From: Cyanophora paradoxa CCMP329
Taxonomy: Eukaryota > Plantae > Glaucophyta
Direction: 5' to 3'
DNA: 64,000 nucleotides
Assembly (NCBI GenBank): GCA_004431415.1
Contig: QPMI01000518.1
Coordinates: forward strand, 24,796 to 88,795
Numbering within the stretch: the stretch's first letter is position 1; the number at the start of each line of letters is the position of its first letter. Positions 24,798-57,820 of the stretch are shown here, in pieces. Both the position numbers and the translations under genes were made by a program. The notes under the pieces are model-generated. The model searched no databases. It was not told the origin of the DNA and saw nothing but the letters and a program-made list of their open reading frames with translations.

Positions 24798-24855
24798 CCG
24801 ATTATCTGACCATTTTCAGTAAGACCATCTGAAATTCTGAATTTCTCAGTGTCAA

Positions 24856-28130: not shown

Positions 28131-28152
28131 TCTTTATATTATACAAACAATA

Positions 28153-29211
28153 TTATGTAGCACTTACCAGGTAAACCAACAAGATGTGATTGTTTGGAAA
28201 GTCAATACTACCTAACATACAGTAAATTTGAAGACTGTCTCCCATGGTGAGGGTAATAAGAGCTTCGTAGCACATCTGATTCCTGCTTGATTGACTTGCA
28301 TATGAAAGAATCAGATTTGTATTGTTTCCGTTTATTCTTAGTCCAATCTGGGAGGCAGTTGCAGTAATGTCTTCCGTAATTGTAAAATAGACCCTATAAA
28401 CTCCTGAAACAGGGGCTGTAAATGTTGCTGGATACAGTTTGTCAAAATGACCCTCATTATTCACAAGATATGTTCCAACTGGAAAAGAAAGTGTTGGGGT
28501 GCCGGAACTAACACTTGTTCCAAAAATCTGAGCGTTTGCTTGTTGTCCTGAAATACACATTCTTGGGCAATAGCTGCGTTTAAGACCACTGTTTGTTGGA
28601 AATGTGATTGCTTTCAGATCTGTTATTGTCTTTTCGAGAGTGAAAATGATATCTCCGTTTCGTTTATAATTCACATTTGCATCTGTCCCATTATCCATCT
28701 CAGGTGCATTAACTCTTGTAGTAGCTATTCGAGTAACATAGTTAACATCTCCTGAGAGACCACCATTAAAGGTCATCAATCCTGTGAATACACTTGTCCC
28801 ACTCACATTTAATTGGTTTGCTGTAACAGTTCCTGCTACATTTGCTCCATCTCCAATGTAGGCTCCTCCACTCTTGACTACAAGAGCAGAATTATTACTT
28901 GTGTTACCAAAAGTAACTATCTGAGCTGTGGTAAATCCACCCACATTATCATATATTGCTGAATCGGGGACTACTTGACCCGCTTGAACTTGATTTTTAT
29001 TCGAGATAATAATTCCTGTGGTTCTTATCTTGCCTCCATTTCGATCACAACGAATTTCTTTGACTCTAAGTATATTGTTCTCAGTGAAAGAGGTAATGCT
29101 TGTAGTTTCAGTGCATATATTCCCGGGTGTAGAGTCGACTACTTCATGAGAGGTGCTATGGAGTGATTTGGCTGCAAGTTCATAGTTTGGGATTTCTAAA
29201 AGGGAGGTCAT
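28153..29211 (-). CDS. Fibre-like protein 1 with C-terminal C1q/TNF-like domain
   Basis: Probable start MTSLLEIP after TAAAG; paralogous N-terminus; FTAPVSGVYRVYF...LTMGDSLQI C1q signature. Confidence 0.75.
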   Translation of the reverse strand: MTSLLEIPNYELAAKSLHSTSHEVVDSTPGNICTETTSITSFTENNILRVKEIRCDRNGGKIRTTGIIISNKNQVQAGQVVPDSAIYDNVGGFTTAQIVTFGNTSNNSALVVKSGGAYIGDGANVAGTVTANQLNVSGTSVFTGLMTFNGGLSGDVNYVTRIATTRVNAPEMDNGTDANVNYKRNGDIIFTLEKTITDLKAITFPTNSGLKRSYCPRMCISGQQANAQIFGTSVSSGTPTLSFPVGTYLVNNEGHFDKLYPATFTAPVSGVYRVYFTITEDITATASQIGLRINGNNTNLILSYASQSSRNQMCYEALITLTMGDSLQIYCMLGSIDFPNNHILLVYLVSAT

Positions 29212-29230: not shown

Positions 29231-32200
29231 TTAAATTGCGACAGCAATGTAATGAATTGTAACTGGAAATCCTGGTCTGTCAAAAGAACTTAATGGAACT
29301 ATGTCAAGCTCACAAGTGAAATAGCTACTGTAAACTTGTTTAAGCCTAACATACATTCGATAGTAGTAGGCTGTCTCATTGTGTTGTATACCAGTTGTTA
29401 CAATAGGAGGGTTAGCAAAGCTGCTGTTGAAATTAATAGTGAGGTTAAACCTATGGTCAGGATTTGCCCAAAGATAAGGAGTAGTGTAAACATACGTTCC
29501 TGCTTGGATTTTCCCATTAAAATATGCATTGAGTTGACTGGAAAGATCTGCCTCTGTAATACATCGACTGATGGTCGCATTATTTGAGGGGTTCATAGCA
29601 TAGAAATTTCTTGCATAGGCATTTCCACGAACAAGTAAGGTTTTATCAAAGTAATTCTGCGAATTGTGGAAGAACCATGTTTCTTCAAACATAGGTCCTG
29701 CTGGTTCTACAATCTGACCTGATCCTACATACATTGTGTTGTTGGCTCTGATTGTGGTGGCTGTGAAAGGATCGAGGGTGGGTTTATTGGTCAGGTCATT
29801 GTAGTTGCCCGAAAATAAAGCGGGTTTGTTATAGATATCTGTATTCCAATCATGAGTATGTGCAAAATCTGTAATATCTGCTTTGACATGAGTGTGAGCA
29901 AAATCTGTAATCTCACTCTTGACATGAGTGTGTGCAAAATCTGTAATCTCACTCTTGACATGAGTGTGTGCAAAATCTGTAATCTGTGACTTTGTGTGAG
30001 TGTGTGCGAAATCTGTGATTTCAGATTTAAAATGAGTGTGAGCGAAATTCGTAATATCTGCTCTTGTGTGGGTGTGTGCAAAATCTGTTATCTGGGATTT
30101 TGTGTGAGTGTGTGCAAAATCTGTGATCTCTGCTCTTGTGTGGGTATGTGCTCGATTATTCAGATCAAGGAAGCTACCTGAATATGCAACAGGGTGTAGA
30201 TTAGATGGGGTGGGTTTATTAATGAGATCATTATAATCTCCTGTGAAAGATATGATTTTCAGTTCACCCCTTCCAACATAATCAGAAGGGAGGTCAATCT
30301 TAATGGGCATGATAGCTGGATCATCAGGGATCTCATACTCACCTCCTGGGTGAACCACAGGGAATGTTTGATTGCTTTCAGTGTGAACAAAGAAGTTGCA
30401 TGCTGTTACTGTTCCATCAATTACCCCACCTGTGAGAGGGAGGTAATCTCCTGTCACACCAATATTGATACCTGCAATGATTGTATTTAGTTCGGTTTCA
30501 TCTATGTAGTTTTGGGCTTGAAGGTAATCCTCTGTAACCACTCTTGATATAGTTTCATTGTGAATATTTTTTGCAGCCATTCTTTGATTAGCTTCCAGAA
30601 CCCCACCATAATTCGTTTTTATCCATGCAAGTTCTGCCCTTCCATAATTATCATTTGCAGTTCCCACTATGGGAATGTAGGAGTATTTATCTCGACTGAA
30701 AACTATCATTGGTCTTGATCCATCCAGACTGCTCACATCTGCAACATGAACCTGTATAGCTGCATTGTAATTTTGGTAGGTTGCTGGGTCTGTTGGAACT
30801 CTAAAAGTATCTGTGGGTATGTCAACCTCCATGTAGCTTGACACAAAGATATTTGGTATGGTTGCTCCTGGTTCTGGTGGTGGATTATAAGAGCCTGGTA
30901 ATGTTCTAATATGAAGTGGTCCTCTCATAGCTGAATTTGCAAGTGTCCCTTCCACATGAACATAGTGGTGATTCAAAAAGATCCTTTCAGGGACATTGCA
31001 AGTCTGGTAAAGAGAAACTCCCAGAGTAGCAAGAGGCTCTACTTTTGCGAATTCTGGTTGGTCATTGATCTCATCCCAAGTATGTTCATGTTTGCTTGGT
31101 GGGAACTCAGTTGGAATCCCATCAATTTCTCCCCAATCATGCCTGTGATCCTCTGGTGGAAACTTTTCAGGTTTGCCCAAGATCTCATCCCAATCATGAT
31201 TGTGATCCTCTGGTGGAAATCTTGCTGGTTTGTTATTGATCTGCTCCCAATCTGGGAAGAACTCCCAAATCTCTGGGCGAAATCCATCTGGTAATAATTC
31301 TTCATGGGGTTCATATGGTTGCTCATAATCAACAACTGGTGGTTCGAGACCATCTGCTAAATATTCCTCATGGGGTTCATAATTCTGCTCATATTCATAC
31401 TCTTGTGGATCTAAACCATCTGGTAAATACTCTTCCTCATTGGGATCATATTGATCATATTCATACTCTTGTGGGTCGAAACCATCAGGTAGGTATTCCT
31501 CCTCATCTGGAACGAATTGGTATTCGTCAAGCTCCAAAATATCAATTTCAGGAGGTAAATATTGCTCATCAATTTGCTTTCTTGGTTCAATTATAGGTTT
31601 ATTTCGAACCTGCTCCCAACTCACAATGTGTTGACCAAAAGGAACTGTCTCATCTGCTGTGTATTCTCTTCCTGGTTGCTTTTTGGGTGTTAAATCTGGT
31701 GGATCCCATGGTAGTGGGAAGGGAACTGGGACAGGTCCATAATACTCAAAGATCTCTCTTATGGTCTTCTCACTTACAAGTTTCTCTCCATTTGCATAGA
31801 CATTGCTTCCATGGATATTTCGCCATTGTCTGGTTCTAATACCAAGATCTTTGGTGTTTGTCACCAAAGGTAAAAGGTGCCTATCCATTTCGACAAGGTC
31901 TGGGTGTAAATGAACTGTTACTGGTTGAGTGGGGCTACTGTTGACAGTGATAGACGCCTTATTCTTTGCTGTATCACCAGGTAGTTGGAAACCGAATTGC
32001 GCATTAGAAGCCGAATTCGCCACAATATCTCGTGGATAAACATTGTTAGTGAACTCGATTTTGTTGGTTTCTCCATGGGGGCTATCTGTAATATTTCGGG
32101 AATTTGTGCAATTGCATTTGATCCTTCATTATAGATTCTCAAACCACTCTGATGCCCACCCTTCTCATTTTGAACATTGAATATTAACCTACCACTATCG

Positions 32201-34577: not shown

Positions 34578-35977
34578 CTATTTCCTCTGCCCTCTTCGTA
34601 GATTGAATCGAGTTTGGGGTGCAGTATATGTTTCTTTGGTGGTTGAAAAGTCATTATACCACCTCTGACTGTTGACTTCTGATAATTTCTGGGTTCCTGC
34701 TATGGTCAACTTCTTTAATTCTTTCTCTACTCTACCCTTCTTTTGTGCTCTTGCTTCTGTGAGGGGTTCTTTTGGTATTTCACTTGCTTTTTCTATGCCC
34801 TCCTTTCTGATTGCTGAATCAACCCTGGCTTCCTCCTTTGCCTGTTCAAGAGCATCCACTGTGGGAGTTTCATGATACTCAACACCTTTAATGGGCAGCA
34901 GTTCATGAAAAGCGAATCTACCATCAACTATCTCACCACTGGGACTTCTGATTCTGAACTTGAAGCCCTCTCTGCCCTCCACACTATAAACAATTCGAGA
35001 CCAATTAACCCCTTGCTTTGCAAATGGATTCTTTTCAACTTTCACTCTCACAAACATTCCAGGTTTCAGGGCATCAAGATACTCAATCGATTTCTTGAAT
35101 CTCTGATCCTCCATATTCACTATCTCTTTGTAGTGGGCTTCTGTGGTCTCTGCTGGTTTTCTCTTGGTTGCAGAGTGAATGGTATTATTATAATTATACT
35201 CAATATCACCCAACACATCAAAAAATCGTGCAGTATTATTTGCAATGCAGTAGTTTGTGATCAATCTCTTGATCTGTCTGTTAAAGGCTTCAATTCGACC
35301 TTGGGTTCTGTGATCTGCAACATCACTTAGTTGATGCTCAATGAATTTTGTTCCCAAATAATCTGTGAACAACACATTGGTAAATTCGCTTCCACTGTCA
35401 CTCTGAATGCGAACAATTGGTCTGGGGACTCTCTGTTCAAGTTGCTTGAATGCTGCAAGTGTAGTAAGAGCACTCTTGTCTCTCATTGGAATTATGAACC
35501 CTGTTCTCAGGGTTGACTCCATTGCACTCATAAATGTATCATAACCATCATTCTGCTTTTTGTATGCAGGAAAGAAGAGCAGATCAATCACATAGGTATC
35601 AAGGGTTGCCTTATTGGAATCATGGGATCTCTCTTTCGAGATAGGGTGGGTGCATTAATCTGGACGACCTCCTGCTTATCATACCACTCTCTCATCTTCT
35701 TGTAGTTCTCCTCTGGTAGTTCCTGTCTCATTGCAGTAAATCCCTTGTAGCCTGTCCTGGGATCATAGAACTTCTTAGCAATCTTCGACTCTTTTGGTGC
35801 TGTCTCAGCTGGGAGGGTCTCTGGGATTAATTGCTTGACCATCTCTGATCTTTTCAATATTCGACTGCTCTTCTCCTCCACTGGAACTGTGATGGGCAGG
35901 ATATTCCCTCGATCTTCAATTGCCTCTTTTCTTACAATTCTGGGTGGTTGTCTCAATCCTATTTGTGTAGAAGGCAT
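34578..35977 (-). CDS. Retroviral-type (rve) DDE integrase, Polinton family; one frameshift at ~35610
   Basis: N-terminal FYDPRTGY...EWYDKQEVVQ; catalytic VIDL, QSDSGSEF and GRIEAFNRQIK; YNNTIHSATKRKP. Adding one A in ATAAGG joins the two ORFs (IPIKATLDTYVIDL). Confidence 0.9.
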
Positions 35978-36160: not shown

Positions 36161-39100
36161 TTAGAGCCCAAATGGAATGCTGTGAATTCCATCGTCTAAT
36201 ATCTTCCTTTTGCTATCGAGTTGGTTTAGAGCCACCCTTCTGCTCTCCAAATCATATAGGTTGTGGTCTTGCCTTCGCTTGTTTACTACTGCTACTGTTT
36301 TGGTGATGCCTTCAAACAGGCATCTCTTGAAATCATCAAAGTGAACCTCTTTGGAGGAAGTCCCAGACATCTTTATTTTATCAAAGGTCTCAGTTCTGAA
36401 AGCATAGAGTTTCGATCTCAGACCTACATACTCCACAATCTTTGCATTTGGAAACTCGTTTTTATATTTACCTGGAATCAAACGATTGCTCCTATCAAAG
36501 AGAGGGTGGGTGGGATCATAATTACTGCAATCCAGGTGTCCAGCAATTCGCTTCATCTCATTATTTAGATCATTGGTATGCAGCAGGAGACAGAAAGAAT
36601 CTGTATCATGGAATAGTAGCTCTGCTGTTTCCCAAGTTCTCCTCACCACATCATAAAAGAACCTGCTATTGTGGAGTTTCGCGAAATCCAGCACAAAAGC
36701 ACCAATTGCAACAGGTTTATCTAAGTGAACATGCTTGGAATACATCTCAAAGGCAACAGCATTTTCGTTTAATACATTGGTTGCCTTGATGAGTGGACTT
36801 GCAGCATATTTCTTGCAAAGTTTCTCACTGTTTGCAATCTTTACCACAGAGCGACCCCTGCATGATTCGAGGCATTTACCATAGATTGCATTGTTCATTA
36901 ATTTAAAGAAGTCACTCTCGAATCTGGACATAGATTGGCGCCTCAGTTTCGTATTTAGATCAATATAACTCTTCATGAATGCAGAGGTTGCAAATGAGAG
37001 AACCCTGTGAACCTTCGTGATTATAATACCTTTGCTCACAAGATAGATCAAGAGAGGTTGGGAAATCACATAGTTATTTTTGGGTGAGAATGTTGCAGTG
37101 AGTTTGGGGTCTTTGCTTATCTTCTCACCTGTGATATCCAGTAACTTTCTTTGATACCCACCAGCATTTCGGTGGTGACATGTTCTTTATTAACTACAAG
37201 TGGAAAATCGTAATGATCTGTGAGAGTTTGTGGGTATTCCAGGTCAACTTCAATAAAGGCACTTCGTCCTTGGGTCTCTTTAAGTGCCTCTGAGACATCT
37301 TCCCATCGAAAATCTCCAATGGGCAGTTCTTGACTGAGAGCAAAACCATACAGATTATTTGCATCCAAGAGAACTATATGGTCATCTGGGTTTTCCACCT
37401 TTGCATATCGAGTAGGCATTGTAGCAAACCCACCTCGAATTGCTCTCTCAATGAATTCGTATTGCCCTACATCACTGATCTGCTCGATCTTTGCTCTGGT
37501 ATAAATGAGCATTGCATCCCAGGATAATCCAGGAGCCGAAACATAGTGGGCAGGATCCAATCCATATTGGGAAAACGCCAATTCTCGGAAAGTCTGGAAT
37601 TTACTCATAAGATCACCAGAATCCACTGCCTGGAAGTCCATGAAGTGCGAAGCATCTATGAATTTCCACATGCCCCATTGCAGGGAGAGGTATTGATCGA
37701 AATTCTTGCTCAGGATCTCAACACGAAGTTTATCATCTTGCTGTGCAATTTTGCGGAATATTTCGTGTCCACATTCATCCATGTGATCCACCACAATTGC
37801 TACTTTCGTTTGCTTTGAGATTCTCCTGTGGAGGTTGCAGTTTCGACATGCTTTCCCAATAAATGCTCCTGATTGATGACAATGGTCTCTCACTGGGAAA
37901 TTCTCATGGGTAAATCGTTCAGCACAGATATAACAGTGTTTAGTGATCTTGTATTGTGCTTTCTGCTCTTCTGTGAGTGGGTGCATTGGAATATTGGTGA
38001 ATAGAGTGCGGATTACTTGGGGTCTGATCTCTGTGAGAGTGGTAAACAGAGCACCAAGTGGATCTGATCCCTCGAAATAATGAGAGATCACCTCATCCCC
38101 CATCACAACTGTTAAAGAAACCGATTTGACCGCTCTTTTACTGCGGTTCTCATCAATTGGAACCGAGTGACTATCCATTTTTACATAGCAGATAGTGGGA
38201 AGCCACACAGTTTTGCGAAGGTGTTGAAGCCCAAATGCAATGTGACTTCCAGATTTCGGGCATTTACCTTTGCTCTCCCTCCAATCAATGCAGCGATTGG
38301 CTTCTAAGTGAATGTCCAGCTTCTCCTGAGTTCTGAAACGAGACAGACAGGTCTCACAGTAATAAATGCGACCATCATGGGCTTTATCAAAGGTGGTTTT
38401 CAGAAGTCTACTCAGAGACATGATGGTGATATAATGCCCTCTATCATCCTCTTCGTTTTCGATTAATAAAAGGTTAATCTTGGTCTTTCTCCTGGGGTTG
38501 CTGGATTGATGGAGAGGATAGAAACACTGTGCTTGATTATCTGCACCATAAATGTTGATTGAGAGTTCAGGGTTCTGCTCCTCAAATCGATCAATAACCT
38601 CTGCATCACAGGCAACTGGAAACTGGATGCCTTCGAAATTGAGTTCGTTTAACCATCTTCTATACTGGCTGGGTTCATTGCTCTTGTGTTTATTAATATC
38701 ATTTCGGTGCAGGTAAGCCAAGATTGCATACTTGAAGCAGTCTTGACCATCAATATTCTTAACATTCACAGTTGCTCTCTTTGATCCAATCCACTCAGGT
38801 GTTGAGAAGAAGCAACCACCCACAGGAGCATAAGACATTATTACCACTCTCAGCATCTCAATGCGATCCAGTCTGTAACTGTCAACCTGCATCATCTGTT
38901 CCTGCATAGATTGAAGGGCATTTCGCAGTTCAACATCAATATTTCGTGATCTTGTGATGACAAAGTAATCACTGTAAATGAATTTGGTGATCCACACCCT
39001 TGGATCACTCACTTTGGTGAATTTACAAATGAAGGTCAACCGAGTTTTAATTGCTCTCAGGTCTTGGAGTTTCTGTCTGAGTCTCTGTGGTAGAGTAGTT

Positions 39101-39441
39101 GCAATTCTCTCCAAGAATTCAATCCCATCTTGGATAACCTCCCCTCTTGCTCGATAGGTCAACCAAGAATATGCTTTGTTCATTGCTTCCCCATCTTCAA
39201 TCTCTGGTGCAATCGCTCCCAACCTTAAACCTTCATCCCTGAATTCCTCCATTTTCTCAAAACGATCATACAGTCGATTTGTAATTTCTGTGAGTTGAGA
39301 TAATCTTGGTCTCCTATCCAGGATTGCTGCCTGGCGATCATATTCGAATTCTGTAATATCACCAGTAACTAAAAGGGTTCCTAAAAGACCGAGTATTTCG
39401 TTTTTCTTTTCTTTGATGATTCTATTTGATTGGCGGGGCAT
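36161..39441 (-). CDS. polB: Protein-primed family B DNA polymerase (pPolB) with degenerate exonuclease domain; one frameshift at ~37160
   Basis: DANNLYG, KLMNNAIYGK, HDTDS and GLRSKLY polymerase motifs; RDHCH..G..C..CN zinc module; N-terminal CFKYAIL...GHY protease-like region after VGG. Confidence 0.92.
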
Positions 39442-39689: not shown

Positions 39690-39834
39690 TTTCTGTCTTA
39701 GTCAAGTGAAATACGCAACCATCCCTTAAATCGCCAGTCAATTTTTGTCACAACACAACGATTTTCGATACGTTTTTATATTGTCCGATTAAGAATCGAA
39801 ACAGTCATCGACCCACAGGGGGCGTCTGTGGTTA

Positions 39835-39972
39835 ATTGGGTGTGACGCCTGTGACGCCTGTGACACCTGTTTTCAGAGGTTTGTAGATTTTTGAAATTTT
39901 AAAAAGTTTGAAAGCAGGCGTCACAGGCGTCACAGGCGTCACACTCAATTAAAAAGGTGTCACAGCTGTCAC
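39835..39972. promoter_or_regulatory. Internal copy of the TIR iteron palindrome immediately downstream of the primase-helicase gene
   Basis: gtgacgcctgtgacgcctgtgacacct...aggcgtcacaggcgtcacaggcgtcac, with a spacer similar but not identical to the TIR units. Confidence 0.7.
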
Positions 39973-40041
39973 ACAAACCATTTACAGTAAGTTTTTAAAA
40001 AATAAGAAATTAAATCAGTATTAGAATCGATTCTGTTTTGT

Positions 40042-42403
40042 TTACTCATCCCCACCTTCAACATCACTGTCATCCACCAACTTGCGACTATGCTTCTTTT
40101 TGATCCCAAAGTAGCCACGAGCAAGAACACCATTGACTCGCTTTCTCTCAGCCTTCACATTAAAGACTTCGCGAAGTCTCTTCAAGATAGTGCATTCTGT
40201 GATTTTCTCATCAGATTTGCCCATGTGATCTATCTTAAAGTGACTGATAATGGACTCACTTGTGGCGAAATCCCCTTGACTCTTGGTGAGTTCATAACTC
40301 TCACGAATCCATTCTCCAATCTTGTCATTCTCATTGAAATATTCAACACCTTGATCAACAATGGACTGGGGTGGTTTGGTGACGAATTCATTGAGAGAAT
40401 GGGTTCTCCACATTTCCAGGAGAATGGACATATGCGCCATTTTATAATCGTCATCATTCTTCATTAGGCGCATGAGAGTGGTGTCTGCTTTCTTCTCACC
40501 AGGCTGAGGATCGACCTTGAAGACATTTTCGAATCGGTAGTAGATAATTCGCCTTTGAATTGCTGCATCTGGTTTACTGATTCCCAAGTTGTCATTTGTG
40601 GACAAGAACAACTGGAACATGGGAATGAATGTAACAAGATCTTTGAAAAGAGCTCGAACCTTCATCTCATTCCCACCAGTAACCTGTTTGATTTTGTTCA
40701 GTTGAAGCATATCACCATCTTCTGCTTCATTACTGAAAACAATTCGTTTACCAAGAATGCAAGCGAGTTCTGGGGAAGCCTCTGACGAACTCTTCTTGGG
40801 TTTAGTCCAATATGTCATGTCCAGTGACCCATAATACTCACCAAATGTGTCTTTCACCAACTCTTGGAGCAGTGATTTCCCATTTGCTCCAATTCCAGTC
40901 CAGCAAGTGTATCTCTGATTTTCTGTCAAACCACTCAGGGCATAGGCAATTAATCCCATCATAAATTCGCGGTTTTCATCAGATTCGATAATATCTGCAT
41001 AGATGGATTTAATCTTCGCAACTTTCTCTTGGTCAATTTCTGTGGTGTAATCGTAGCCAACAGTCTTACTCACCATATCATCTGGGAGTCCCTGTCGAAA
41101 AGTCATGGAGTTCAGGTCAAACACACCATTTGTAAATCCAATGATGTTGGGAACAGTATCAAGTCTCTCGAAAAAGGTCTTGTCACTGAACAGAACTGAA
41201 AGATCAGACATAAGTGCAGTTCTGTATGTAGTCTGTTTGAGGCTCTTAGCAATTCCAGCAGAATCTTTGACCTTTCCTCCAAGGAATTGCGGTTCTCTTC
41301 ATCACGAAGTGCTCTCTGTGCGAGTTGAACAGAACGTTGAAGATAAACTGGACAGACCTTGCAGCTCAAACAGAGAAAGATTCGCTTCCCAGTTTCATCC
41401 ATCTCCCAAATCCCACATACATCATTGAACTTGAACCAGGTCTTGTTGGAATACTTGTATTTGTCTTGCAGAACAAGATAGGCAACCTGTGCAACATCAT
41501 AATGGGCACCATCAGATCCAGCAGACCGATCAATCAGATTTTCGATCTTCACATCTGTCTCTTCCTTCACACGAACTGTGATGCTTCGCTTTTTGCAGTT
41601 TGCACTGTAACTCGAAACAATATATTTGTCCTTCTCCTTCCCTTGAACAATATACCAATTGTTCGAGTCATGGCTTCCCTTGCAGCAGGGACAGATCAGA
41701 CCTTTGTTCTCAGCAGTGAAATTGTATCCCATCTTGGTCTCATTGATGATTGTGGGCAAGATGAAACCGAATTCTTCGAGTTTAGAAAGAATATGTTTCT
41801 GCAAATTCTCCTCAGCGCACCTTGCATAATAAGAATGTGCACCTTTGGGGAATTCGTAGTTTTCAACAATCCACTTTTGCAACTCAGCAGTGGGTTCATT
41901 TAACTCACACTCAGATGCCCATGGCTCTCTGATCCATGTTTTGTTGGGACTGGGACAAACATTAATTACCCAGCAGTCCCAGTGGATGCAATCGTTTTGC
42001 AGTCGATCTTGGGGTTTCCTTTGAATGCACCTGCTTTATCCCAGATCTTAATGGTGTCGAATTCAGCAGGTCGAGCGAAATAAGCATGATATCCTTTTTT
42101 GGTTTTAGCAAGTGGATTAACACCACCGAAATCATCAGGGAATTGCTCCTCGAATTTGGCGAAATCCTCCTCTTGGTCGAAGTCAATAACCATGATATTA
42201 CGAGCAAGAATGCCCCAAGCAGTATATTTACCGGATTTCAGGGCTTCATCGAATTTATCCCAAGTCCAGGATCCGTCTTTATGAGCGAAAAGCGGTCTCT
42301 TGGTATCAGGATCAACAGGAATTACGAGATTCTCAGACAGGACATCGTCTTCACGAAGCCAGTCAACAAGGCGTTTCAGGGATTTCTTGGCGGCAGCGTT
42401 CAT
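40042..42403 (-). CDS. PrimPol (bifunctional primase-polymerase) + Zn finger + D5-like SF3 helicase; frameshifts at ~41970 and ~41255
   Basis: VIPV...KRP, IMVIDFD and KTKKGYHAYF (AEP motifs); CPCCKGSH; IGFTNGVFDL; WTGIGANGKS Walker A; IKQVTGG and RALF. A single added G in each of two G runs restores one ~790-aa frame. Confidence 0.9.
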
Positions 42404-42597
42404 TTCGAAAATCGGGGGCTTCTTACACTTAATGGAGAAATTAATTTCTCCGGATCCTTGTCATTTTTTGGCGGCTAACCTTTAAATACCTTTGGGTTTT
42501 CCGATTGGCGCTCGATATATGGTAATGATCCATCGAAAAGTCGATTGATCATGGTAACAAAAAGGATTCAGCGGATATCTGGGACTTTGGGGGCGGT

Positions 42598-42825
42598 TCA
42601 GTATTTTCTGGGACGACCTACTGGGCGTTTGACTGGATTATTGGGATCCATCTCAGCAGCTTTCCTGCGATAATATCGTTCCAGTGCCTTTTTACGATAT
42701 AATTCACGAAATTCCTCATCTTGATAACGTTTCTGGAAATACAAGCGGTCATACAACCTTTTCCTCTCATTGGGATCCATTTCGCTCATTGCAAGTTCGA
42801 ATTCGACCACAGATTCAGTTTCCAT
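42598..42825 (-). CDS. Small basic protein with C-terminal AT-hook-like motif (RPVGRPRK)
   Basis: 75 aa with an R/K/Y-rich helix and GRPRK; upstream AAAAAATGAC motif. Confidence 0.7.
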   Translation of the reverse strand: METESVVEFELAMSEMDPNERKRLYDRLYFQKRYQDEEFRELYRKKALERYYRRKAAEMDPNNPVKRPVGRPRKY

Positions 42826-43025
42826 TTGATATGTTCCTTATAATGGGACGAGAAAATAATTTGTCCGGTTCACCAATCAAACACACCTTACCCTTAAATC
42901 CCTTGTCATTTTTTGCAGATCGAGACCAGTTCCTGTCTACGCTTTTTTATTGCGGCTTCTGTTGCATATTCAGCGGATTTCCTTTCAAGGATAGCATAGA
43001 TCTCAGAGAGACTGAGCATTCGATA

Positions 43026-44892: not shown

Positions 44893-46290
44893 TTACAGAT
44901 TAATGCGACGAAGACCATCTTTGTCAACAATAATGAAACTGTGCATGAGAGCACGAACATTAACTGTGATTGTCTGGTCAGAAGGCATGTATAGAGTAAG
45001 GAAAGAAGAGGAGGAGTTCGTGAGATCAACATAGCCAGACTGGGCAATGTTGCGAATCGCTTTCTCTCCATCAACACAGAATGGTAGACCACTGAGGACA
45101 TATTTGTCTGCAACCTTGTCCATATTTGAGCACTTGAAGGCATCCGCAATTAATTCGGCACCTTTGAGGAGAGGGATGGGCTCAGTAGCATAGAGACGTT
45201 GACCATTAATTTCAACAGTGAAAGTAATGTCTTTTGAGTTAGCATGCGTTTTTAGGACACTGTGGGAACCATTGAAACCATCAATACCTGCGGCATCACG
45301 AACTGAAACAAGAAGACCATAGACAAGACCAGAGATCTGTGACAGGTTAATACGATTTGGTTGAGCATTGCCTTTTGCAGCAAAATTGACACTGTCAACA
45401 AAACCAATATCCAGAGCAGGAATAGCCATACCAGTGGTCTTCACCTTCTCAATGACAGTAGCAAACAGTTCATCAGAAACATTAATAGCATGCATGTAAA
45501 GACGAGGAGAAGTGACTTTAATTTCGGGGGTTGTTCCAGAGATGGTGAAAGTGGTGATCTGTTGACCAACATGGGCAAGAGTAGCATTAGCAGTAGCACC
45601 AAGTCCATCATCCTCTGTCTTATCAGCAGCTGTTCCACCAACAACTGGAAGAGCACGACCACCATAAGAAGTCTCAACATAACCCTTTCCAGCATCCTTG
45701 AACCAGACAGTCACCACCATTTCTCCTGTGAGAGCACCAAGAGGGAGGTAGTGGTTTAGCCATGGGACGGGGATTTCAACAAAGAATGACCCACCAAGTC
45801 GGTTGGTTCCATGGGCAGGGATACCATGAACCATACCCATTGAACGCTTCTTCTTGGCGAGTTGATCCTCACTGTAATAGATAAGAGGGAAATGAGCAAG
45901 GAAATCAGAAGGCACATGGAAAGTGTAAGATCCATAGGTGATTTCAAGTCGAGAGACAAGAGCACCAACTGGGCGAACGTATCCATTGCGAACAAGGTCG
46001 GTATCACCAGCAAAAGTGACAGCTGGAAGGTCAAACGCAAGTTCGAGTTTTCCACAGAAATTGTAGCGAGGGAGCTTGAAAGAAATGCGATTTCCAGCAT
46101 TATTCTCGAAAGTGTTGCTTGGGTTCACAACAACAAGAACTGGCTTCGACTTGGATTCAAGACCAAGCATGAGAGAGTTGTCCAGGAAGAACGCCTTGGC
46201 TTCTTCCGGGTTGTTAGAGCTTCTTTCAGAGAAAGACGTTGGAGGGTCGAAGTAATATCCATGATTATCTCTTTTATTATACTGCAACAT
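44893..46290 (-). CDS. Major capsid protein (double jelly-roll, PLV type); true start may be the ATG at 46262 with a frameshift at ~46208
   Basis: ~460 aa, beta-rich, between penton and ATPase; ISFKLPR...ALVSRLEITYG pattern. The alternative N-terminus MDITSTLQRLSLKEALTT matches LKELLTT of the element 2 MCP. Confidence 0.75.
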   Translation of the reverse strand: MLQYNKRDNHGYYFDPPTSFSERSSNNPEEAKAFFLDNSLMLGLESKSKPVLVVVNPSNTFENNAGNRISFKLPRYNFCGKLELAFDLPAVTFAGDTDLVRNGYVRPVGALVSRLEITYGSYTFHVPSDFLAHFPLIYYSEDQLAKKKRSMGMVHGIPAHGTNRLGGSFFVEIPVPWLNHYLPLGALTGEMVVTVWFKDAGKGYVETSYGGRALPVVGGTAADKTEDDGLGATANATLAHVGQQITTFTISGTTPEIKVTSPRLYMHAINVSDELFATVIEKVKTTGMAIPALDIGFVDSVNFAAKGNAQPNRINLSQISGLVYGLLVSVRDAAGIDGFNGSHSVLKTHANSKDITFTVEINGQRLYATEPIPLLKGAELIADAFKCSNMDKVADKYVLSGLPFCVDGEKAIRNIAQSGYVDLTNSSSSFLTLYMPSDQTITVNVRALMHSFIIVDKDGLRRINL

Positions 46291-47355: not shown

Positions 47356-48288
47356 ATGATTCGGCTGGTCAATATAGATAGCAGAGACCGATCAGATGGA
47401 CAAATAGAAAACTCCTACAAGGTTTCACTCACAACCCCAGTGACCAAACCAAGAGAATGTCGAGTTTTGTATGCAGAGATCCCCAACAGCATCTATAACT
47501 CCATTGGAACAGACCACCTTCTTGTCAGATTCTACTACCAAGGCATCTCTGAAACCAAGCAGGTCTTCCTTCTCCCAAGTGGTTACATAAATCAAGGTCA
47601 TTTCGGGGTCACCACTCCATATAATTATGGTCTGAATTTCACATTTACTGGGAGCAACAATCTCACATATGCATTCAAGGTCTACTACAACCCTACCTCC
47701 TACAAATTGGAGTTTTACAGTAATGTTCAATTCGATATGGTTGCATCTACACAGAGATTGGGTAAACTTCTTGGTGTGAGTTCAGTGGAGTGGGTGGCTT
47801 CCACCGAACAGATTTACGATTTCCCAGAGTCTGCAAGGTCTTTATATGCCCCCGAGAATTTCCTTTATTTTTCAGGAATACCAATCACCCCAAACCATCC
47901 CCAATGGGGAATCACATTCACAGGATATGAATTCGAGGCATCTCGCTTAAACTACAAGTTAGAAGCATCCAAGATGACAGATATGAATGCAGAACAGTAT
48001 TTATACATGCACATTAAAGAACTCTCCCCATTTGCTACAAACCACAATATTGTCCCAAGATCACAACCACAGAATCAAGGGGCGATTCTCAGATTGCAGT
48101 TAAGTAAAGATATTGGGCAGTATGTTTATCACAGTGGAGAGCACAGTGAATACATAAAAATAACCGATCGAAACCTGGTGATTAGAGAGTTAACAGTTGA
48201 GTTTCGCGATTATTATGGTGATCTTGTAGATATGAATGGAATTGACAACTCATTCCAGTTAGAGTTCTTGGCTATTGGTAATGATTAA
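47356..48288 (+). CDS. Minor capsid (penton) protein B
   Basis: NIDSRDR...YAEIPNSIYN and LTVEFRDYYGDLVDMNGIDNSFQLEF, typical PLV/NCLDV penton termini. Confidence 0.8.
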   Translation: MIRLVNIDSRDRSDGQIENSYKVSLTTPVTKPRECRVLYAEIPNSIYNSIGTDHLLVRFYYQGISETKQVFLLPSGYINQGHFGVTTPYNYGLNFTFTGSNNLTYAFKVYYNPTSYKLEFYSNVQFDMVASTQRLGKLLGVSSVEWVASTEQIYDFPESARSLYAPENFLYFSGIPITPNHPQWGITFTGYEFEASRLNYKLEASKMTDMNAEQYLYMHIKELSPFATNHNIVPRSQPQNQGAILRLQLSKDIGQYVYHSGEHSEYIKITDRNLVIRELTVEFRDYYGDLVDMNGIDNSFQLEFLAIGND

Positions 48289-48574
48289 ACCGATCCTGAT
48301 AGAAGAACTCCCCATCTGTCTCGAAAATATTAAGAATGGGACTCTTTCGATCTTCTGTATACCATCGGCGAATTGTCTTATCCCATTTAGCACCATTCTT
48401 TTTCAAGAATCTACAAAGAGTTGATCTCCTTGTAATTCGCAATCCCATCTCTTGAAAGATCTCATAATGATCTTGTATTCTTTTCACAATCAAGATGTAA
48501 GTCCCATGGAAATTGTGATATTGCTGGTTAATCGGCATGTTTCCTTTACAGCATGATGGGAAATCGTTTGTCAT
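48272..48574 (-). CDS. Small protein with DUF5710-like motif (start at 48574 or 48538)
   Basis: LKKNGAKWDKTIRRWY motif. Confidence 0.55.
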   Translation of the reverse strand: MTNDFPSCCKGNMPINQQYHNFHGTYILIVKRIQDHYEIFQEMGLRITRRSTLCRFLKKNGAKWDKTIRRWYTEDRKSPILNIFETDGEFFYQDRFNHYQ

Positions 48575-48585: not shown

Positions 48586-49969
48586 ACGAGAGTATCTCAT
48601 GAGATAGATGAGAGAATAACAGGTGTGTTTTCAGGGTTGGAGAAATCGGAGAAACATAGAGTATTGCGATTTCCGAGTTAGTTGACACTGAGAAATTCAG
48701 AATTTCAGATGGTCTTACTGAAAATGGTCAGATAATCGGGTGTGACACCTATTTAATTGACTGTGACGCCTCTTTAATTGACTGTGACGCCTGTGACGCC
48801 TGTGACGCCTGTGACGCCTACTTTCAAACTTTTTAAAATTTTCAAAAATGACAGACTTCTTAAAACAGCCGTCACAGCCGTCACAGGCGTCACACCCAAT
48901 TAAAAATGGAATCTCTTTCTCTTACTGAGATATTCAAAAATATATTCTTGTCTTACTGAAATCCGTCTTGTGACACTCTGACACCTACAAAACACTATCC
49001 ATTAATCCACCTTTCCGAAAATGCGAAGTTGTCTTACTGGAAATGGTCTGCAATTTCGCTGTGACACCTAATTTAATTGAGTGTGACGCCTGTGACGCCT
49101 GTGACACCTACTTTCAAACTTTTTAAAATTTTCAAAAATGACAGACTTCTGAAAACAGGCGTCACAGCCGTCACAGGCGTCACAGACATTCTACCCCTCT
49201 TACTGACTTTCTCAAAAACAAATATATCTCTTACTGAATATCATTTGAATACTACCTGTCACACTTGAATTCATTTATTCTGTTTTATAGAACATATGCA
49301 ATCTCATCGATTATTCAATTGGAGACCATGCAACTCTGTGACACTTTTTCGATCAAAAGTATACATCCGCAATCTCATCGATTGTTTAATTGGACATAAT
49401 GCAGTTCCGATATATTCCAATAGAAAATCCGCAATCTAATCGATTGTTTAATTGGAGATAATGCAACTCTGTGACACTTTTTCGGTGCAAAAATGTAAAT
49501 CCGCAATCCCATCGATTGTTTAATTGGACATAATGCAACTCTGTGACAGTTTTTGCGTTTTCCGATACAAAATGGGCGGTGGTCTACTTCAATACCGATG
49601 AGATATATCGAGTTTATGCGAATTTATGCGAATTTATGCGAATTAATCGCGATTATATCGTTCTTTAAGTAGTTTAATGTTAATCAATCGAAGTTATATA
49701 TGTAATCGACAAAGAACATAATCTATCGATATAATATCGATTGAATCAATCGTGAATATGCATTAAATTAAACGCGTTTATCATTTTTAATACAAAGTTT
49801 GCATTAATTTATACAAAGTTTGCATAAAAAGTTAAAGAAATTAATCGATAAATATGTATTTTAGTATTAAATTAACACATATTGAAAAACGAATTTAAAT
49901 CCAGAGTGAATCGAGATCGCGAAGCGATCGAGATGAACGAGGGATTTAAATTCGTTTTTCAATATGTGT
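48586..49969 (-). repeat. Right TIR of element 1 (~1384 bp)
   Basis: Reverse complement of 23566-24951. Confidence 0.95.
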
Positions 49970-50019
49970 CGGTCCTTTCGATGTCTCTTCCAACAACGAG
50001 GCTCCTCCTCGTGTGCGCG

Positions 50020-51347
50020 GCAGCACGCGGAGAAGCTGGGGCGGGACCAGCAGGAGATGTGCGCCGTCGCGCACGGCGTCGCGGATAGCCGCCAGTGGGA
50101 CATGGTGCCCCCGCCCGCCCCCGCCCGCCTCGAGTGCAGCCGCGACCCGACCCGACCGACCCGCGCGGCCCGCCAGATCGTGCAGATGCTCATGATAAAG
50201 CAGCCCGAGTGGATGAGGGTGAGTCGGTGATCACGATACGATAAATTTAAAGCGACCCGGGCCTCCCTCCAGTTATTGTGCGCCGGCCGCGAGCTGAGGG
50301 CCTCGGGCAGGACATCGAGGAGGCGGACCGGCTGACGGGGATGGAGCCGGCCACGTGGGACGACCGCTACAGCATCAACTTCTTCGGGGTGCGGTCGCGC
50401 GCGATCCGCATTGAAGTTTCGGGGCTGTGCGATGCAGTCGCATTCTCCCTCGCGCGCGTCTCGAGCCGGCATGCACGTGCAGGCCCCCGACGACGCCGAG
50501 GAGGCGGAGATCCCCTCCCCCGTCGTCGTTGCGACCCCCAACTCGCGGCCGCGCCGCCCCCTCGGCCCCCAGCCGGCCGCCCGCGTCCTCGCGAGCTACG
50601 GGGCGCCGCCGGCGCCGGCGCGGACGGGGAAGGGGGCGAGGAGGAGGCGCCGGCGACGATGACGGAGGCGGAGTGGAGCGCAATGATCAACGAGCGGATG
50701 AAGAATTCCGTCCTCGCCCTCAGCGTCGTGCGCCGCCCCGCCGGGACGGGCCGTTTGGGCGCCTCCGCGCCGGCTGATGCGCGGGCGCGCCGCGGTGGCA
50801 GCTGGCGGGGGCGAAGGAGGCGGCGGAGAAGGCGCGCGTGAGGTCGCTCACCTGCGAGACGTGCGAGTTCGACAAGCAGCCCGCGCGCAACGCGGCGCGC
50901 CAGAGAGCCATTTTCCCCCCTGCATGTGCATCCTTCAGCCCTCTCCCGTCTGACTGCTACCACTGTACGCTCAGGCGGCGATCGCGAGGCACAAAATGAC
51001 GCCCGCCCACGTGGTGCGCTAGTCGCGGCCGATCCGAACGTCGACTTTCAGCTATAGCTTCTTGAAGCCTTGAATTTCGTTAATATACTATTTTTGCATC
51101 GACTCGAACTGACCCTGGGCGCAGGAGCGGGACCGGTCGTACCGAAAGCTGCTGGCCGACCTCGCCATAATCTGCGAGGATGCCATCGAAGGGTGCGCTG
51201 CGATCGTACACGCGTCCGGCTTGAGTCTCGCATCCCCGTGCAGCCTTGTCGAGCCCCTCGAGCTGTGGATTCGTCGACCCGCACGTGGATTCACACGCGA
51301 GCGCAGGATGCAGGAGACGATAGCGGCGCTGTGCGACCTCGGGGGCC
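50020..51347 (+). CDS. Host TRANK1-like gene, right copy, exons between the two viruses
   Basis: HAEKLGRDQQEM..QWDM, LTCETCEFDKQP and ERDRSYRKLLADLAIICEDA match left-copy exons HGEKLLGDRQEM..QWDM, CDACECKKQP and ERKRLYHKLLLDLASICEDA. Confidence 0.7.
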
Positions 51348-51774
51348 AAAAAAAATGAGAGAGGACCTGATTCTGTGGCCCACCCCTCTTCACCACCCTC
51401 ACCTCTCCGAACCCACCCCAACCCACCCAATCCAGCGTCTTCCCAGCCATCACTCTCGCCAACCCTTCCGCTACGTCTACCGCCCTTCTCTCCCTCTGGT
51501 CTACCTCCCTTCCATCCAGCAACCACTAGGTAGTATCTAACGTCTACTCCAATCGATCTTGCAAAAGATATAGCAGTGATTTGAGACGGGCCCCAACGCG
51601 ACGGTCTGCAGAGATAGCTTAATCAGCAGCTAGGCGTTAATACTGTGTTCTTCCTATCTAAATAGCGGAGAGGTTTCCAGGTTCTAGCTAGACGATAAAA
51701 CTATATAATCGAAGCTGATTGCATATGCGAGTTTAGGTTCTAGTTAGTCAATAATACTGTGTGGATGATAGCGC
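51348..51774 (+). repeat. Left TIR of element 2 (~427 bp), starting with an A run
   Basis: Reverse complement of 61996-62417 with a few small indels. Confidence 0.93.
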
Positions 51775-51850
51775 AGTAGCAATGTTGAAGATTTGGACAG
51801 GAAGTCCTAAAAAACGAAAGATCGAGAGATGTTGAAGATTTGGACAGAAA

Positions 51851-52255
51851 GTATAGTAATGTAGACGAGCTTCTATGCGCTGGCATAAAAGTATAGTAAT
51901 GTAGACGAGCTTCTATGCGCTGGCATAAAAGTATAGTAATGTAGACGAGCTTCTATGCGCTGGCATAAAAGTATAGTAATGTAGACGAGCTTCTATGCGC
52001 TGGCATAAAAGTATAGTAATGTAGACGAGCTTCTATGCGCTGGCATAAAAGTATAGTAATGTAGACGAGCTTCTATGCGCTGGCATAAAAGTGATAGTGC
52101 GCTGATAGTGCGCTGATAGTGCGCTGATAGTGCGCTGATAGCTAGCCGGAGACAAGCCGGAGACAAGCCCGAGACAAGCCTGTGCCAAGCCGGATCCCGG
52201 AGACCAAGCCCGAGCCAAGCCGTCAAGCCAATCGTTACAGGCATCGTTACAGGCA
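51851..52255. repeat. Subterminal tandem array: 6 x 40 bp, then ~4 x 11 bp (TGATAGTGCGC), ~3 x 11 bp (GCCGGAGACAA) and 2 x 12 bp
   Basis: gtatagtaatgtagacgagcttctatgcgctggcataaaa starts at 51851, 51891, 51931, 51971, 52011 and 52051. Confidence 0.95.
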
Positions 52256-52370
52256 TTCACTCCCAGCGATGCCGGAGCCCTAGCTTAGTGAAGCGCTCAG
52301 CATTGGCTTGTACTCGATCGCCGGCCCGACAGGATCAGCACTGCTAGAGGCGATGCGCAGGATCGATGCG

Positions 52371-52800
52371 TTAGCTACAGCAGCTCGCTAGCATTCTCAT
52401 CGACCTCGGGATCGCAACAATCGTCTTAGCAGGAACAGCAGATGCAGGAGGGGCAACCTTCTTATCGACCTTTGTCTTCGTGATCGGTTCATTTAAAATC
52501 TTGTTCTCCATCTTAGTCTCAGCCGCGATGCCAGCTATAAGATCACTAGCTCGCTTCTTTGAAACTGTTTTAAGACCGGTCACAGTTTTAATGAAATACC
52601 TGCTACGATTAGCCGTCTCTGAGATGTACAGCGGCCCATCGTCGTATCCTTAGCTTGCTAGTCTTGGTCTTCTTAGTCCGAGAATTCGGATCTTATCAAG
52701 AATAGCGTTCTCATCGGCGGTAAGAGCATAGTCGTTGGATGCACCCTCACCGCCACCAGCGCGACGGGCTAGCGGTAAGCATCAGTATCACCACTCAAGA
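52371..52800 (-). pseudogene. Frameshifted Lys-rich hypothetical protein, probable homolog of 43287-44021
   Basis: Shared TKxxVDKxVAP motif; fragmented reading frame. Confidence 0.4.
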
Positions 52801-52979
52801 ACTCGATGTGATTCTTCTTAGTAGGGCTGGAAGTGCGCAGCCAAGACTGCATGTCTGTCGACTTCTTCGCGGAGTGCGCAGCCGAGACTGCTTGTCTGTC
52901 GACATCTTTTAACTAGTAGTGGGAAAAAACTTATGCGAACGATCTGTCGAAGGGACGTACTCGCTGGCTGCATTCTTGA

Positions 52980-53785
52980 TTGCGGATTTAGCAGCAGCAG
53001 ACGTGTAAGAGACATCTCGATATCGAACTCTAGCACGAACGAGAACTCCGTGTTTGTGACAGCGTCTGTTCCATTATGATAGCGCAGCGATATGTCAAGT
53101 TCAGACAGCTCAGCGTTTCGATCGAAGCCTGTGACGGGAACACGATCCTCAGATGTGAACTTGATGAGCTCCCCGAATTTTGAGTCGATGTGAATCTTTG
53201 CGATCGAGCCGTTGTATAGGGGTTAAGTGTCAAGATCGAGCCTTTGATCTGCTGAATGTACAGGAACAAATACGTGTGATAAAGTAGATCAACTGGCATA
53301 TCGCTGAACAGCTCGTACGAATATTGTACGCATCGATTGTCTCAGGTGTGTCAAGCTCACTGGAAAGGTCACTGAGAGTCTTCGCAAACCCGAGCAGGTT
53401 CGCTAGTTCGGCCGATGTGAAGCTCAAAATAAAGTCCGCTTCACACAGGAACTAAGCCGCATTGAGATCTCTTCGAACTGAACGACGAACTTGCGCTGAT
53501 AAGTAGTTCCACCGTAACTATACTGCTGGGTTTTAAGAAGCGTGCTTAGATAGTTTGCAAGGGAGGTTGGCGTATAGACTCCGGGCTTGAAAGTGTTGGC
53601 ACGTGTTTTCTCAACGCCAGAGGGATCAAGGGTGCCGTGATAATTGCGGCTTGTGTGGACAGGTTGAACATGTTATGAAACAGTTCTAGCGAATCAACTC
53701 GCACCGACTTTACATTAACGAGGGCCTGGGAGATTGATCTTGAAATTCGAGGACGTGCCTTCGAACCGGTCCCTAGAATCGACAT
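52980..53785 (-). pseudogene. Minor capsid (penton) protein, frameshifted
   Basis: Fragments GTSSNFKINL, VNVKSVRVDSLELFHNMFN, LANLLGF, YLFLYIQQI and EFDIEMSL follow penton order. Confidence 0.6.
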
Positions 53786-53844
53786 TTACGCGGAGCTTCA
53801 TCTTACAACAATATGCATGAAAATTTTCTGGTCTATAATAGCAA

Positions 53845-55013: not shown

Positions 55014-55053
55014 CTCGTATCAAATGTCAACTCTAAAGGTAAGTAACTTCTAG

Positions 55054-56450: not shown

Positions 56451-56879
56451 GATGACCCTCCATCTGCGCAGCGAGCTGCTTGTCTGCGACTTTTTCGTTA
56501 CATTTACAGTTTGCATTATCTTTAAGACTTAAAAGTCGCGCTAATTTGTCTTAAAAGGATTTATGTCTCTTATTATTGAGAGACAAACCGAACAATGACT
56601 TCTGCAATTACTGGCGGATTGCGTGTGGCGGTTTAAACGTGGCCGTGGCGACCCCTAAGGTTCGTCTTTTAACAATGGAGCCTATCAGCGAAGAAGAAGG
56701 GGGCTAAACCGTGGAGGGTCACCCCGGAGATTTTAGCAGAGCGACGCAGAAAGAATGCTGAACGCAATCGCAAACTGCGCCACACGAACGAAACATACCG
56801 TTTGAAACAGCTGCCATCACAGCGAAGTATCGAGCTGAGAATCCTGATAGGATCCGGGAGTACCACAGGAATGCTATTG

Positions 56880-57811: not shown

Positions 57812-57820
57812 CTTTGTAAA

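Follow-up and report, generated by a model that had tools for sequence, protein, structure and literature searches.

In the staphylococcal pathogenicity islands (SaPIs; pri-rep-ori) and in phage P4 (alpha), the initiator gene adjoins short iterated sites that form inverted arrays around an AT-rich stretch. P4 requires two separate cis sites, ori and crr, which share one octamer, and the origin-binding domain of P4 alpha is a C-terminal winged helix. Inverted initiator sites with an AT-rich melting element and head-to-head helicase rings are also known from simian virus 40 (SV40; large T), papillomaviruses (E1), and herpes simplex virus 1 (HSV-1; UL9/oriS). A comparable arrangement was found in a Polinton-like virus (PLV) integrated in the genome of the glaucophyte Cyanophora paradoxa CCMP329, in a 64,000-nucleotide stretch of contig QPMI01000518.1 (GenBank assembly GCA_004431415.1, contig positions 24,796 to 88,795, forward strand). 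This whole stretch is called the window below, and coordinates are counted from its first base. The element contains five copies of a palindromic module of 9-bp repeats, one directly behind its D5-type primase-helicase gene and two in each of its terminal inverted repeats (TIRs), and these modules are candidate replication origins.

The initiators of P4 and SaPI unite helicase and primase activities (Barth et al. 2019, PMC7145576; this and the other works cited are represented here by excerpts). Virophage-like elements with both a protein-primed DNA polymerase (pPolB) and a D5 primase-helicase have been described (Hackl 2021, PMC8547959; Haro 2026, bioRxiv 10.64898/2026.07.28.741278), and low-GC endogenous virophages of a host with 70% GC combine pPolB, a primase/helicase, and an rve integrase (Hackl 2021, PMC8547959). 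Terminal palindromes adjoining the target-site duplication (TSD) have been reported, together with a hairpin-priming model, for Halocafeteria virophages and PLVs (Haro 2026, bioRxiv 10.64898/2026.07.28.741278). In the mavirus-like EMALE04 virophages, each new version of the primase/helicase came together with changed TIR sequence (Koslova 2024, PMC10945749), and according to the “replicative end-module” hypothesis, the inverted repeats of PLVs are origins recognized by the primase-helicase (Barth 2024, PMC11296320). An earlier reading of the window, made from its letters alone (the sequence-only reading), had suggested, from its combination of features, a hybrid replication system not recognized as described; such a system is in part not new, since the pairing of pPolB with a D5 helicase, the terminal palindromes, and the link between helicase and TIR have all been published. 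No published description of explicit iteron modules in virophages or polintons was found in a full-text search, outside which most subscription journals and preprint supplements fall.

The 9-mer GTGACGCCT had 25 exact matches on the two strands of the window, compared with 0.39 expected, and none of 100 shuffles reached 25. All 25 exact copies were confined to five homologous modules, namely, two in the left TIR (A and B), their mirror images in the right TIR (B' and A'), and one internal module (C), so that the palindrome described in the sequence-only reading, behind the helicase and twice per TIR, was recovered in full. When up to one mismatch was allowed, 47 matches were found in the window, with 40 in the modules, 1 at another place in the element (36303), and 6 isolated in host DNA. 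The modules have the anatomy of iteron arrays: a 47-nt spacer separates three forward 9-mers from three or four reverse ones, giving inverted arms of three to four copies with a 9-bp period in 5 of 5 modules, and one or two further reverse copies follow at a spacing of ~21 nt. The arrays are imperfect in places (variants GTGACGGCT, GTGACACCT, and AGGTGTCAC). The spacers, with 75 to 79% AT, were among the top 1 to 3% of the element's 48-nt windows by AT content, as would suit an easily melted stretch. Folded as single-stranded DNA (ssDNA), module B reached −48.3 kcal/mol (z, −13.7), and module C, a near-perfect 121-nt palindrome, reached −47.8 kcal/mol (z, −13.7). The four TIR modules lie 0.8 to 1.2 kb from the element ends (module A, 787 to 889 nt from the left end). 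Module C has its nearest 9-mer 78 nt and its far end 200 nt past the helicase stop codon (40042), in keeping with the ~70 to 200 bp first estimated.

Modules A, B, and C are homologous across ~170 nt, including the spacer and the right flank CCATTTnCAGTAAG. Modules A and B matched at 100 of 103 positions overall and at 46 of 47 spacer positions. Between module C and the TIR modules, 53 of 56 array positions matched, compared with 38 to 39 of 47 spacer positions, and a 21-nt spacer stretch was invariant among the modules. The sequence-only claim that the spacers drift while the 9-mers are conserved was therefore only mildly correct: the arrays are somewhat better kept, but the spacers themselves are fairly conserved. 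An inverted-array detector (one 8-mer with at least two copies on each strand within 300 nt) found only the known modules in the element and in two phage genomes described below (L009 and L014); its matches at 6648-6965 and 17114-17299 were set aside as GC-rich host sequence.

The gene that ends beside module C codes for a D5_N and SF3 helicase protein with a probable N-terminal AEP primase domain, which supports its first assignment as a PrimPol-SF3 helicase. Pfam matches were obtained for D5_N (E value, 2.4e-8) and DUF5906 (7.8e-8), and the D5_N domain occurs together with the SF3 P-loop core; in the PDB, the helicase matched African swine fever virus (ASFV) C962R (4e-15) and poxvirus D5/E5 (1e-5). 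The Prim-Pol domain scored just under the Pfam cutoff (E value, 1.7e-4; 22.5 bits versus 22.8), and a relative, P0113, had a clear Prim-Pol match (4e-9). The closest homolog, P0041 (775 amino acids [aa]), was 39% identical over the helicase part and 50% identical over the N terminus (residues 8 to 154), and its residues 8 to 772 were collinear, with no gap, across three frames of the window. Because of this gapless collinearity, the gene was read as containing two single-base frame breaks and no intron. Relatives of the helicase were numerous (33,156 at an E value of ≤1e-3), and the type of N-terminal domain found in the window helicase was common to only 5 of 190 retrieved homologs. The C terminus of the protein is predicted to be a DNA-binding winged helix. 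A Foldseek search with the modeled domain placed RFX DNA-binding domains at the top (best E value, 1.2e-3; TM score, 0.76 to 0.78) and 1ka8, the origin-binding domain of P4, in fourth place (E value, 0.15; probability, 0.84), and the tail of the ASFV PrimPol also matched.

Compared with the bacterial satellites, the several module copies parallel the ori and crr sites of P4, and judging from the sequence, an initiator gene is likely paired with an iteron origin in this eukaryotic PLV as in the satellites, with further copies of the origin in the TIRs. P4 and SaPI are circular replicons of bacteria, whereas this element has a eukaryotic host, a linear genome, TIRs, terminal palindromes, and its own pPolB, and four of its five modules lie inside the TIRs; the relation to P4 alpha and SaPI Rep was compared at the fold level only. 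The inverted sites and AT-rich element also resemble the SV40, papillomavirus, and HSV-1 origins, from which the locus differs in helicase subfamily and DNA-binding domain, in its number of modules (one to three origins in those viruses), and in its arrays of three to four sites with a 9-bp period, where the sites of those viruses are single or paired. Among PLVs and virophages, the closest likeness is the functional link between primase-helicase and inverted repeat proposed in the end-module and EMALE04 work (Barth 2024, PMC11296320; Koslova 2024, PMC10945749). In the excerpts of those papers, the link is drawn from gene position or from covariation and no binding repeats are named, whereas the modules described here provide explicit candidate sites. 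The end-module hypothesis also differs in gene position, since the helicase gene here lies mid-genome with its own module rather than terminally. The element resembles the low-GC endogenous mavirus-like elements (EMALEs), in which a primase/helicase, pPolB, and an rve integrase are combined in a high-GC host (Hackl 2021, PMC8547959), in its GC contrast, its primase-helicase, its probable pPolB, and its candidate rve integrase. Palindromes that adjoin the TSD within the TIRs are shared with the elements of Haro 2026 (bioRxiv 10.64898/2026.07.28.741278), but the palindromes in the excerpts of that study are extreme-terminal, and the iteron modules here, of which those excerpts make no mention, are inside the TIRs and beside the helicase gene.

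Retrieval by helicase homology, which is blind to repeats, produced 79 IMG/VR loci, mostly giant-virus contigs. The sequence-only reading had proposed that relatives be examined for cognate iterons, and such arrays were found behind the helicase gene in only two of the 79 loci, L019 and L026. The L019 contig, 16 kb in length, is PLV-like and contains genes of the A32-type ATPase and GIY-YIG kinds, and its helicase was 34% identical to the window helicase over 378 residues, including the C terminus. At 17 nt past the helicase stop codon, it contained two copies of GGGCCGTCA, an AT-rich spacer of ~50 nt, and three copies of TGACGGCCC, and this was the only array in the 12,992 nt examined. The contig begins in coding sequence and thus gives no information on iterons in end repeats. 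No pPolB was found in the examined part of L019, so the gene adjoining the array in both the window element and L019 is the helicase and not the polymerase. In L026 (8.3 kb, with the same domain set), a palindrome was located 54 nt past the helicase stop codon, and each of its arms contained two repeats of 20 nt. In the DNA examined, neither L019 nor L026 had such an array anywhere but at the helicase gene. A scan of IMG/VR with the L019 17-mer produced 38 loci, with inverted arrays only in L019's own contig. An array match in L032 was rejected as AT-rich and apparently due to chance.

Sequences were also retrieved with the repeat itself, an approach that is biased toward the repeat. The IMG/VR scan produced 17 loci, mostly coding or simple tandem repeats. 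Among them, two complete phage-size genomes (L009/G001 and L014/G002; 39 and 43 kb) contained GTGACGCC in inverted arrays around AT-rich DNA, with 10 of 10 and 7 of 8 occurrences, respectively, within ~240 nt from the stop codon of a primase-helicase gene. These arrays are likely the origins of the two phages. The helicases of L009 and L014 had no BLASTP similarity to the window helicase. Inverted arrays directly after a primase-helicase gene are thus a layout in common use. A small neighboring protein was considered as the reader of the iterons and rejected, given that the array-adjoining open reading frames (ORFs) of the window, L009, and L014 were mutually unrelated. A metagenome scan with the window 17-mer produced at least 121 loci, at least 8 of them with inverted arrays (GC content, 0.47 to 0.65). 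Among the metagenome matches listed, none was related to the element beyond the 9-mers; Pfam matches near the arrays in this same set included a VapE helicase ~0.9 kb away in L179/L180 and DUF3631 in L190, and the arrays of L140 were at the 3' end of a gene for a Prim-Pol/PriCT-1 protein. Also among the matches listed, L154 and L135 were uninformative, and L217 and L236 were too short for ORFs.

In the window, the helicase gene has no uninterrupted frame and is broken twice, at ~41,97x and ~41,25x. Nineteen sequencing runs with one organism label contained at least half of the sampled words of the stretch (share, 0.68 to 0.73), and the frame breaks were checked in four of these, dated 2012, 2019, and 2024. 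One extra base was present at full depth at both helicase breaks in 4 of 4 runs checked, and an extra base behind 37160, at a break in pPolB, was present in 3 of 4. An intact version of the helicase exists in the sequencing data of this organism. The run contigs had ~0.5 to 2% substitutions relative to the window and therefore stem from different copies or strains and not from the molecule seen in the window. The TIR differences and all three frame breaks (24105, 24560, 37160, 41254, and 41968) are single-base length differences in G/C runs, which suggests an assembly prone to indels more than a decaying element; indel artifacts have been noted in comparable assemblies (Hackl 2021, PMC8547959). 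The breaks in the helicase may be assembly errors or specific to the window copy. In run X20, which has another organism label, a few low-depth fragments were identical or 80 to 90% similar to the element, and no conclusion was drawn from them. Runs labeled as possible RNA contained almost nothing of the stretch.

On balance, the five modules are probably replication-origin modules recognized by the element's own D5-type primase-helicase. This is the best-supported reading, based on the anatomy of the modules and on two independent relatives (L019 and L026). It is favored because the 9-mers are nonrandom and, within the element and apart from the copy at 36303, confined to the five modules; because the arrays are better conserved than the AT-rich spacers between the internal and TIR copies; and because adjacency to the helicase recurs in loci that were retrieved without reference to repeats. 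The layout of the two phage genomes, the predicted winged helix, and the end-module hypothesis (Barth 2024, PMC11296320) are in keeping with it. The satellite-style origin of the sequence-only reading is accordingly retained as to iteron anatomy and recurring helicase adjacency, but its further proposals, that a cassette was captured and that the origin was copied from it into the TIRs, remain conjectural. The predicted winged-helix domain at the helicase C terminus would read the 9-mers, and with its two arrays a module would load a head-to-head pair of helicase rings across the spacer. The spacer would then melt, and the N-terminal AEP primase would make primers, so that copying would start at one internal and four subterminal sites per genome. 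Completion of the extreme ends would be a separate task, performed by the protein-primed polymerase or through the hairpin-forming palindromes at the termini. The complete scenario, in which a eukaryotic PLV replicates from helicase-recognized iteron origins (beside the helicase gene and two per TIR) and its ends are completed by protein-primed or hairpin mechanisms, is put forward tentatively, as a possibility short of being probable.

Several observations weigh against an origin function. Inverted arrays beside the helicase gene were found in only 2 of the 79 homology-retrieved loci and in 2 of 37 contigs shorter than 45 kb. The same helicase C-terminal domain occurs in giant-virus contigs without adjoining arrays, so the domain alone does not predict iterons. 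The fold matches of this domain were marginal, with none at an E value of ≤0.001. No close relative of the helicase was found when IMG/VR was searched with the protein, with P0041, and with an alignment of the N-terminal domain or when metagenome contigs were searched. The site in L019 has 6 to 7 of 9 bases in common with the window 9-mer, but the opposite end faces the spacer (the TGAC end in L019 and the GCCT end in the window); this partial likeness may be due to chance and was not counted as evidence. Kinship with L009 and L014 on the grounds of an identical 8-mer was rejected as well, the match being a product of the search pattern and probably a coincidence. The frames of both the helicase and pPolB are broken in the window copy. 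Module C is located 155 nt upstream of ORF84/pPolB and module B' ~170 nt upstream of ORF 48272-48574, and the distance of the TIR modules from the ends places them away from the start of a protein-primed polymerase.

The upstream positions of modules C and B' would also suit sites for another protein of the element, of a helper giant virus, or of the host, acting as enhancers, silencers, or operators of the replication genes and the outermost genes. Palindromic arrays are typical of operators, several small ORFs of unknown function are nearby, and the RFX-type winged helices that gave the best fold match are transcription factors. The two modules of the left TIR, however, lie downstream of the nearest gene (24856-25257, − strand), so that the position of the modules relative to gene starts is inconsistent. 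The genes of the replication block (helicase, ORF 42598-42825, and ORF84) have a different upstream motif in common, which argues against the 9-mers being gene promoters. In L019, L026, L009, and L014, moreover, the array follows the helicase stop codon whatever lies beyond, and no kinship connects the small ORFs beside the arrays of the window, L009, and L014. A regulatory role of this kind is therefore considered unlikely.

That four of the five modules lie in the TIRs, together with the fresh 6-bp TSD and the near-identical TIRs, could mean that the modules assist in integration, excision, or TIR maintenance as subterminal sites of the rve integrase or a partner, as in transposons with subterminal repeats, the internal copy then being a relic or resembling an enhancer; PLV inverted repeats have been proposed to serve recombination as well as replication (Barth 2024, PMC11296320). 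The internal module is nevertheless complete, with spacer and flank, and stands at the helicase stop codon, and the arrays of L019 and L026 are at the helicase gene only, in the DNA examined. The modules are also 0.8 to 1.2 kb from the cleaved ends, and the integrase match is weak, making such a role quite improbable. Little probability is likewise given to the unit being a selfish or neutral palindromic mini-repeat with no role, in which modules A and B arose by tandem duplication and module C by recombination. The 100 of 103 matching positions of A and B suggest a recent duplication, and the units are bounded by TTAATTG/CAATTAA-like flanks, but no TSD surrounds them, and their homology is asymmetric, with the right flank in common and the left flank not. 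The lack of unit copies in the 37.6 kb that the window contains beyond the element, second element included, also speaks against a mobile repeat, as does the summed contig depth at module C, only 4.5 to 8 times that of its neighbors, which corresponds to about five copies per element (a weak measure). Nor would it account for arrays that are more conserved than the spacer or for analogous arrays of other sequence in the corresponding position of L019 and L026.

The element that carries the candidate origins is a 26.4-kb block of ~40% GC embedded in DNA of 70 to 85% GC, and it is a Polinton-like integrated virus. TIRs and a TSD in the 5- to 6-bp range, as in integrating viruses of the Polinton/Maverick type, are both present (Table 1). 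The left and right TIRs had 0 substitutions and differed only by two single-G length differences. The terminal 95-nt palindrome, folded as ssDNA, reached −32.9 kcal/mol (z, −11.2). Every copy of the 72-nt repeat in the outer TIR contained GTGTCACAG, a degenerate half-site of the 9-mer, adjoining CCAATTAAACAATCGAT; these sites may be weaker targets of the same reader as the 9-mers. The host DNA to the left of the insertion contained a 34-nt tandem duplication (1.9 copies) with the TSD hexamer inside it, and the insertion target of the element is this host repeat. The 6-bp TSD fits an rve-type integrase, for which a candidate ORF was found.

TABLE 1 Coordinates of features in the window and of repeat blocks in two phage genomes
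Feature	Position	Strand	Basis or remarks
Integrated PLV (main element)	23566-49969		
TSD, CGGTCC, 6 bp	23560-23565 (left); 49970-49975 (right)		Direct sequence inspection
Host tandem duplication left of insertion	23497-23565		
Left TIR, 1386 nt	23566-24951		Repeat search, 100% complementary blocks
Right TIR, 1384 nt	48586-49969		Contains modules B' and A'
Terminal imperfect palindrome, 95 nt, adjoining TSD	23566-23660; mirror, 49875-49969		Repeat search
72-nt tandem repeat, 3.8 copies, outer TIR	23981-24238; mirror in right TIR		Tandem Repeats Finder
Module A	24352-24475		3 forward 9-mers, 24352-24379; spacer, 24380-24426; 3 reverse, 24427-24454; spaced copy, 24467
Module B	24643-24795		3 forward 9-mers; spacer, 24671-24717; 4 reverse, 24718-24753; spaced copies, 24766 and 24787
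Module C (internal)	39832-39965		TTAATTGGG flank; 3 forward 9-mers, 39841-39868; spacer, 39869-39915 (75% AT); 3 reverse, 39916-39942; spaced copy, 39955
Module B'	48742-48893		Right TIR, mirror image of B
Module A'	49061-49183		Right TIR, mirror image of A
AEP primase-D5_N-SF3 helicase gene	40042-42403	-	Three frames: 41966-42403, ~41250-41975, 40042-41253
C-terminal 114 residues of helicase, predicted winged helix	40045-40386	-	AlphaFold2, pLDDT 77
ORF84, 84 aa	39422-39676	-	No family match; lies between pPolB and module C; start 155 nt from the module
pPolB of main element	36161-39441	-	Pfam DNA_pol_B_2, 5.6e-5, 22.7 bits versus cutoff of 25.8 (weak)
Candidate rve-type integrase	34578-35531	-	Pfam rve, E value 0.003, 18.2 bits versus cutoff of 32.6 (weak match)
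Capsid-like ORF	44893-46290		
Large ORF, weak lectin match	29231-31888		Coding repeats, 29851-30151
Two ORFs adjoining the large ORF	27111-29211		
Promoter-like motif, three sites	39720-39755; 42440-42480; 42860-42900		Upstream of ORF84, helicase, and ORF 42598-42825
Second element	51342-62425		
Tandem arrays on inner side of left TIR, second element	51848-52256		
pPolB of second element	58445-61867		
GTGACGCC block, phage genome L009	2850-3092		Start at stop of Toprim-VapE or PrimPol-VapE gene
GTGACGCC block, phage genome L014	2118-2345		Start at stop of Toprim-VapE or PrimPol-VapE gene

The pPolB of the main element was 28 to 36% identical to that of a second element in the window, which has a Pfam score of 9e-11. 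Near 37,1xx its gene passes from one frame into a second, and a tblastn search with the pPolB of the second element continued in another frame. In a regular-expression (regex) scan, the polymerase motifs DANNLYG, KLMNNAIYG, and HDTDS were present. The ExoI (DxE) and ExoII (NxxxFD) motifs were not found in this regex scan, the only method applied, and both are present in the pPolB of the second element; the earlier description of the polymerase as exonuclease-less fits this result. Language-model features of a capsid-like ORF, the candidate for the double jelly-roll capsid gene of a Polinton/Maverick-type virus, were nearest to clusters in which 12 to 30% of the members are capsids of the nucleocytoplasmic large DNA virus (NCLDV) type (score, 0.98). 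This ORF had no Pfam match and no PDB sequence match, no similarity between the predicted major capsid protein (MCP)-like product and the PDB structures of the mavirus capsid was detectable, and its sole sequence homolog came from one eukaryote proteome. Accessory genes identified with Pfam included those for a patatin with a discoidin domain, two C1q-like proteins, and an AdoMet-decarboxylase-like protein. A large ORF contained 36/108-nt coding repeats and had a weak match to H-type lectin, and the two ORFs adjoining it have C-terminal C1q-like domains; the products of these three ORFs are possible fibre or attachment proteins. A promoter-like motif, AAAAA(T)TGAC..G...ATTTAAGG, was present upstream of ORF84, the helicase gene, and ORF 42598-42825, and several other genes of the element had TCTCTAT/TAAGTAGAG-like motifs directly before the ATG, which suggests two expression classes.

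The second Polinton-like element is ~11 kb in length, with ~48% GC and TIRs of ~430 nt that are 97 to 100% identical. Its pPolB (1140 aa) includes an insert of the Endonuclease VII/HNH-like kind as well as a C2H2 zinc finger. Long ORFs are otherwise few, and tandem arrays (40-nt units, six copies, and 11- to 12-nt units) adjoin only the left TIR, on its inner side. This element showed no helicase ORF, no 9-mers, and, by the detector, no inverted arrays, a single contrast to the main element.

Current models for the replication of Polintons, PLVs, and virophages rest on gene content, namely, pPolB, the primase-helicase, and terminal hairpins. With an explicit candidate site that occurs five times and goes with one specific helicase, the question of their replication becomes experimentally accessible. 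If the modules are origins, they would be the first concrete cis-acting origin for elements of the Polinton, PLV, or virophage type. They would also provide a mechanism behind the reported covariation of helicase type and TIR in virophages and behind the exchange, as modules, of replication genes along with their ends, as well as a sequence signature with which elements could be paired with replication proteins in genomes. The logic of phage satellites, in which an initiator gene adjoins its iteron origin, would then extend to eukaryotic virus-like elements.

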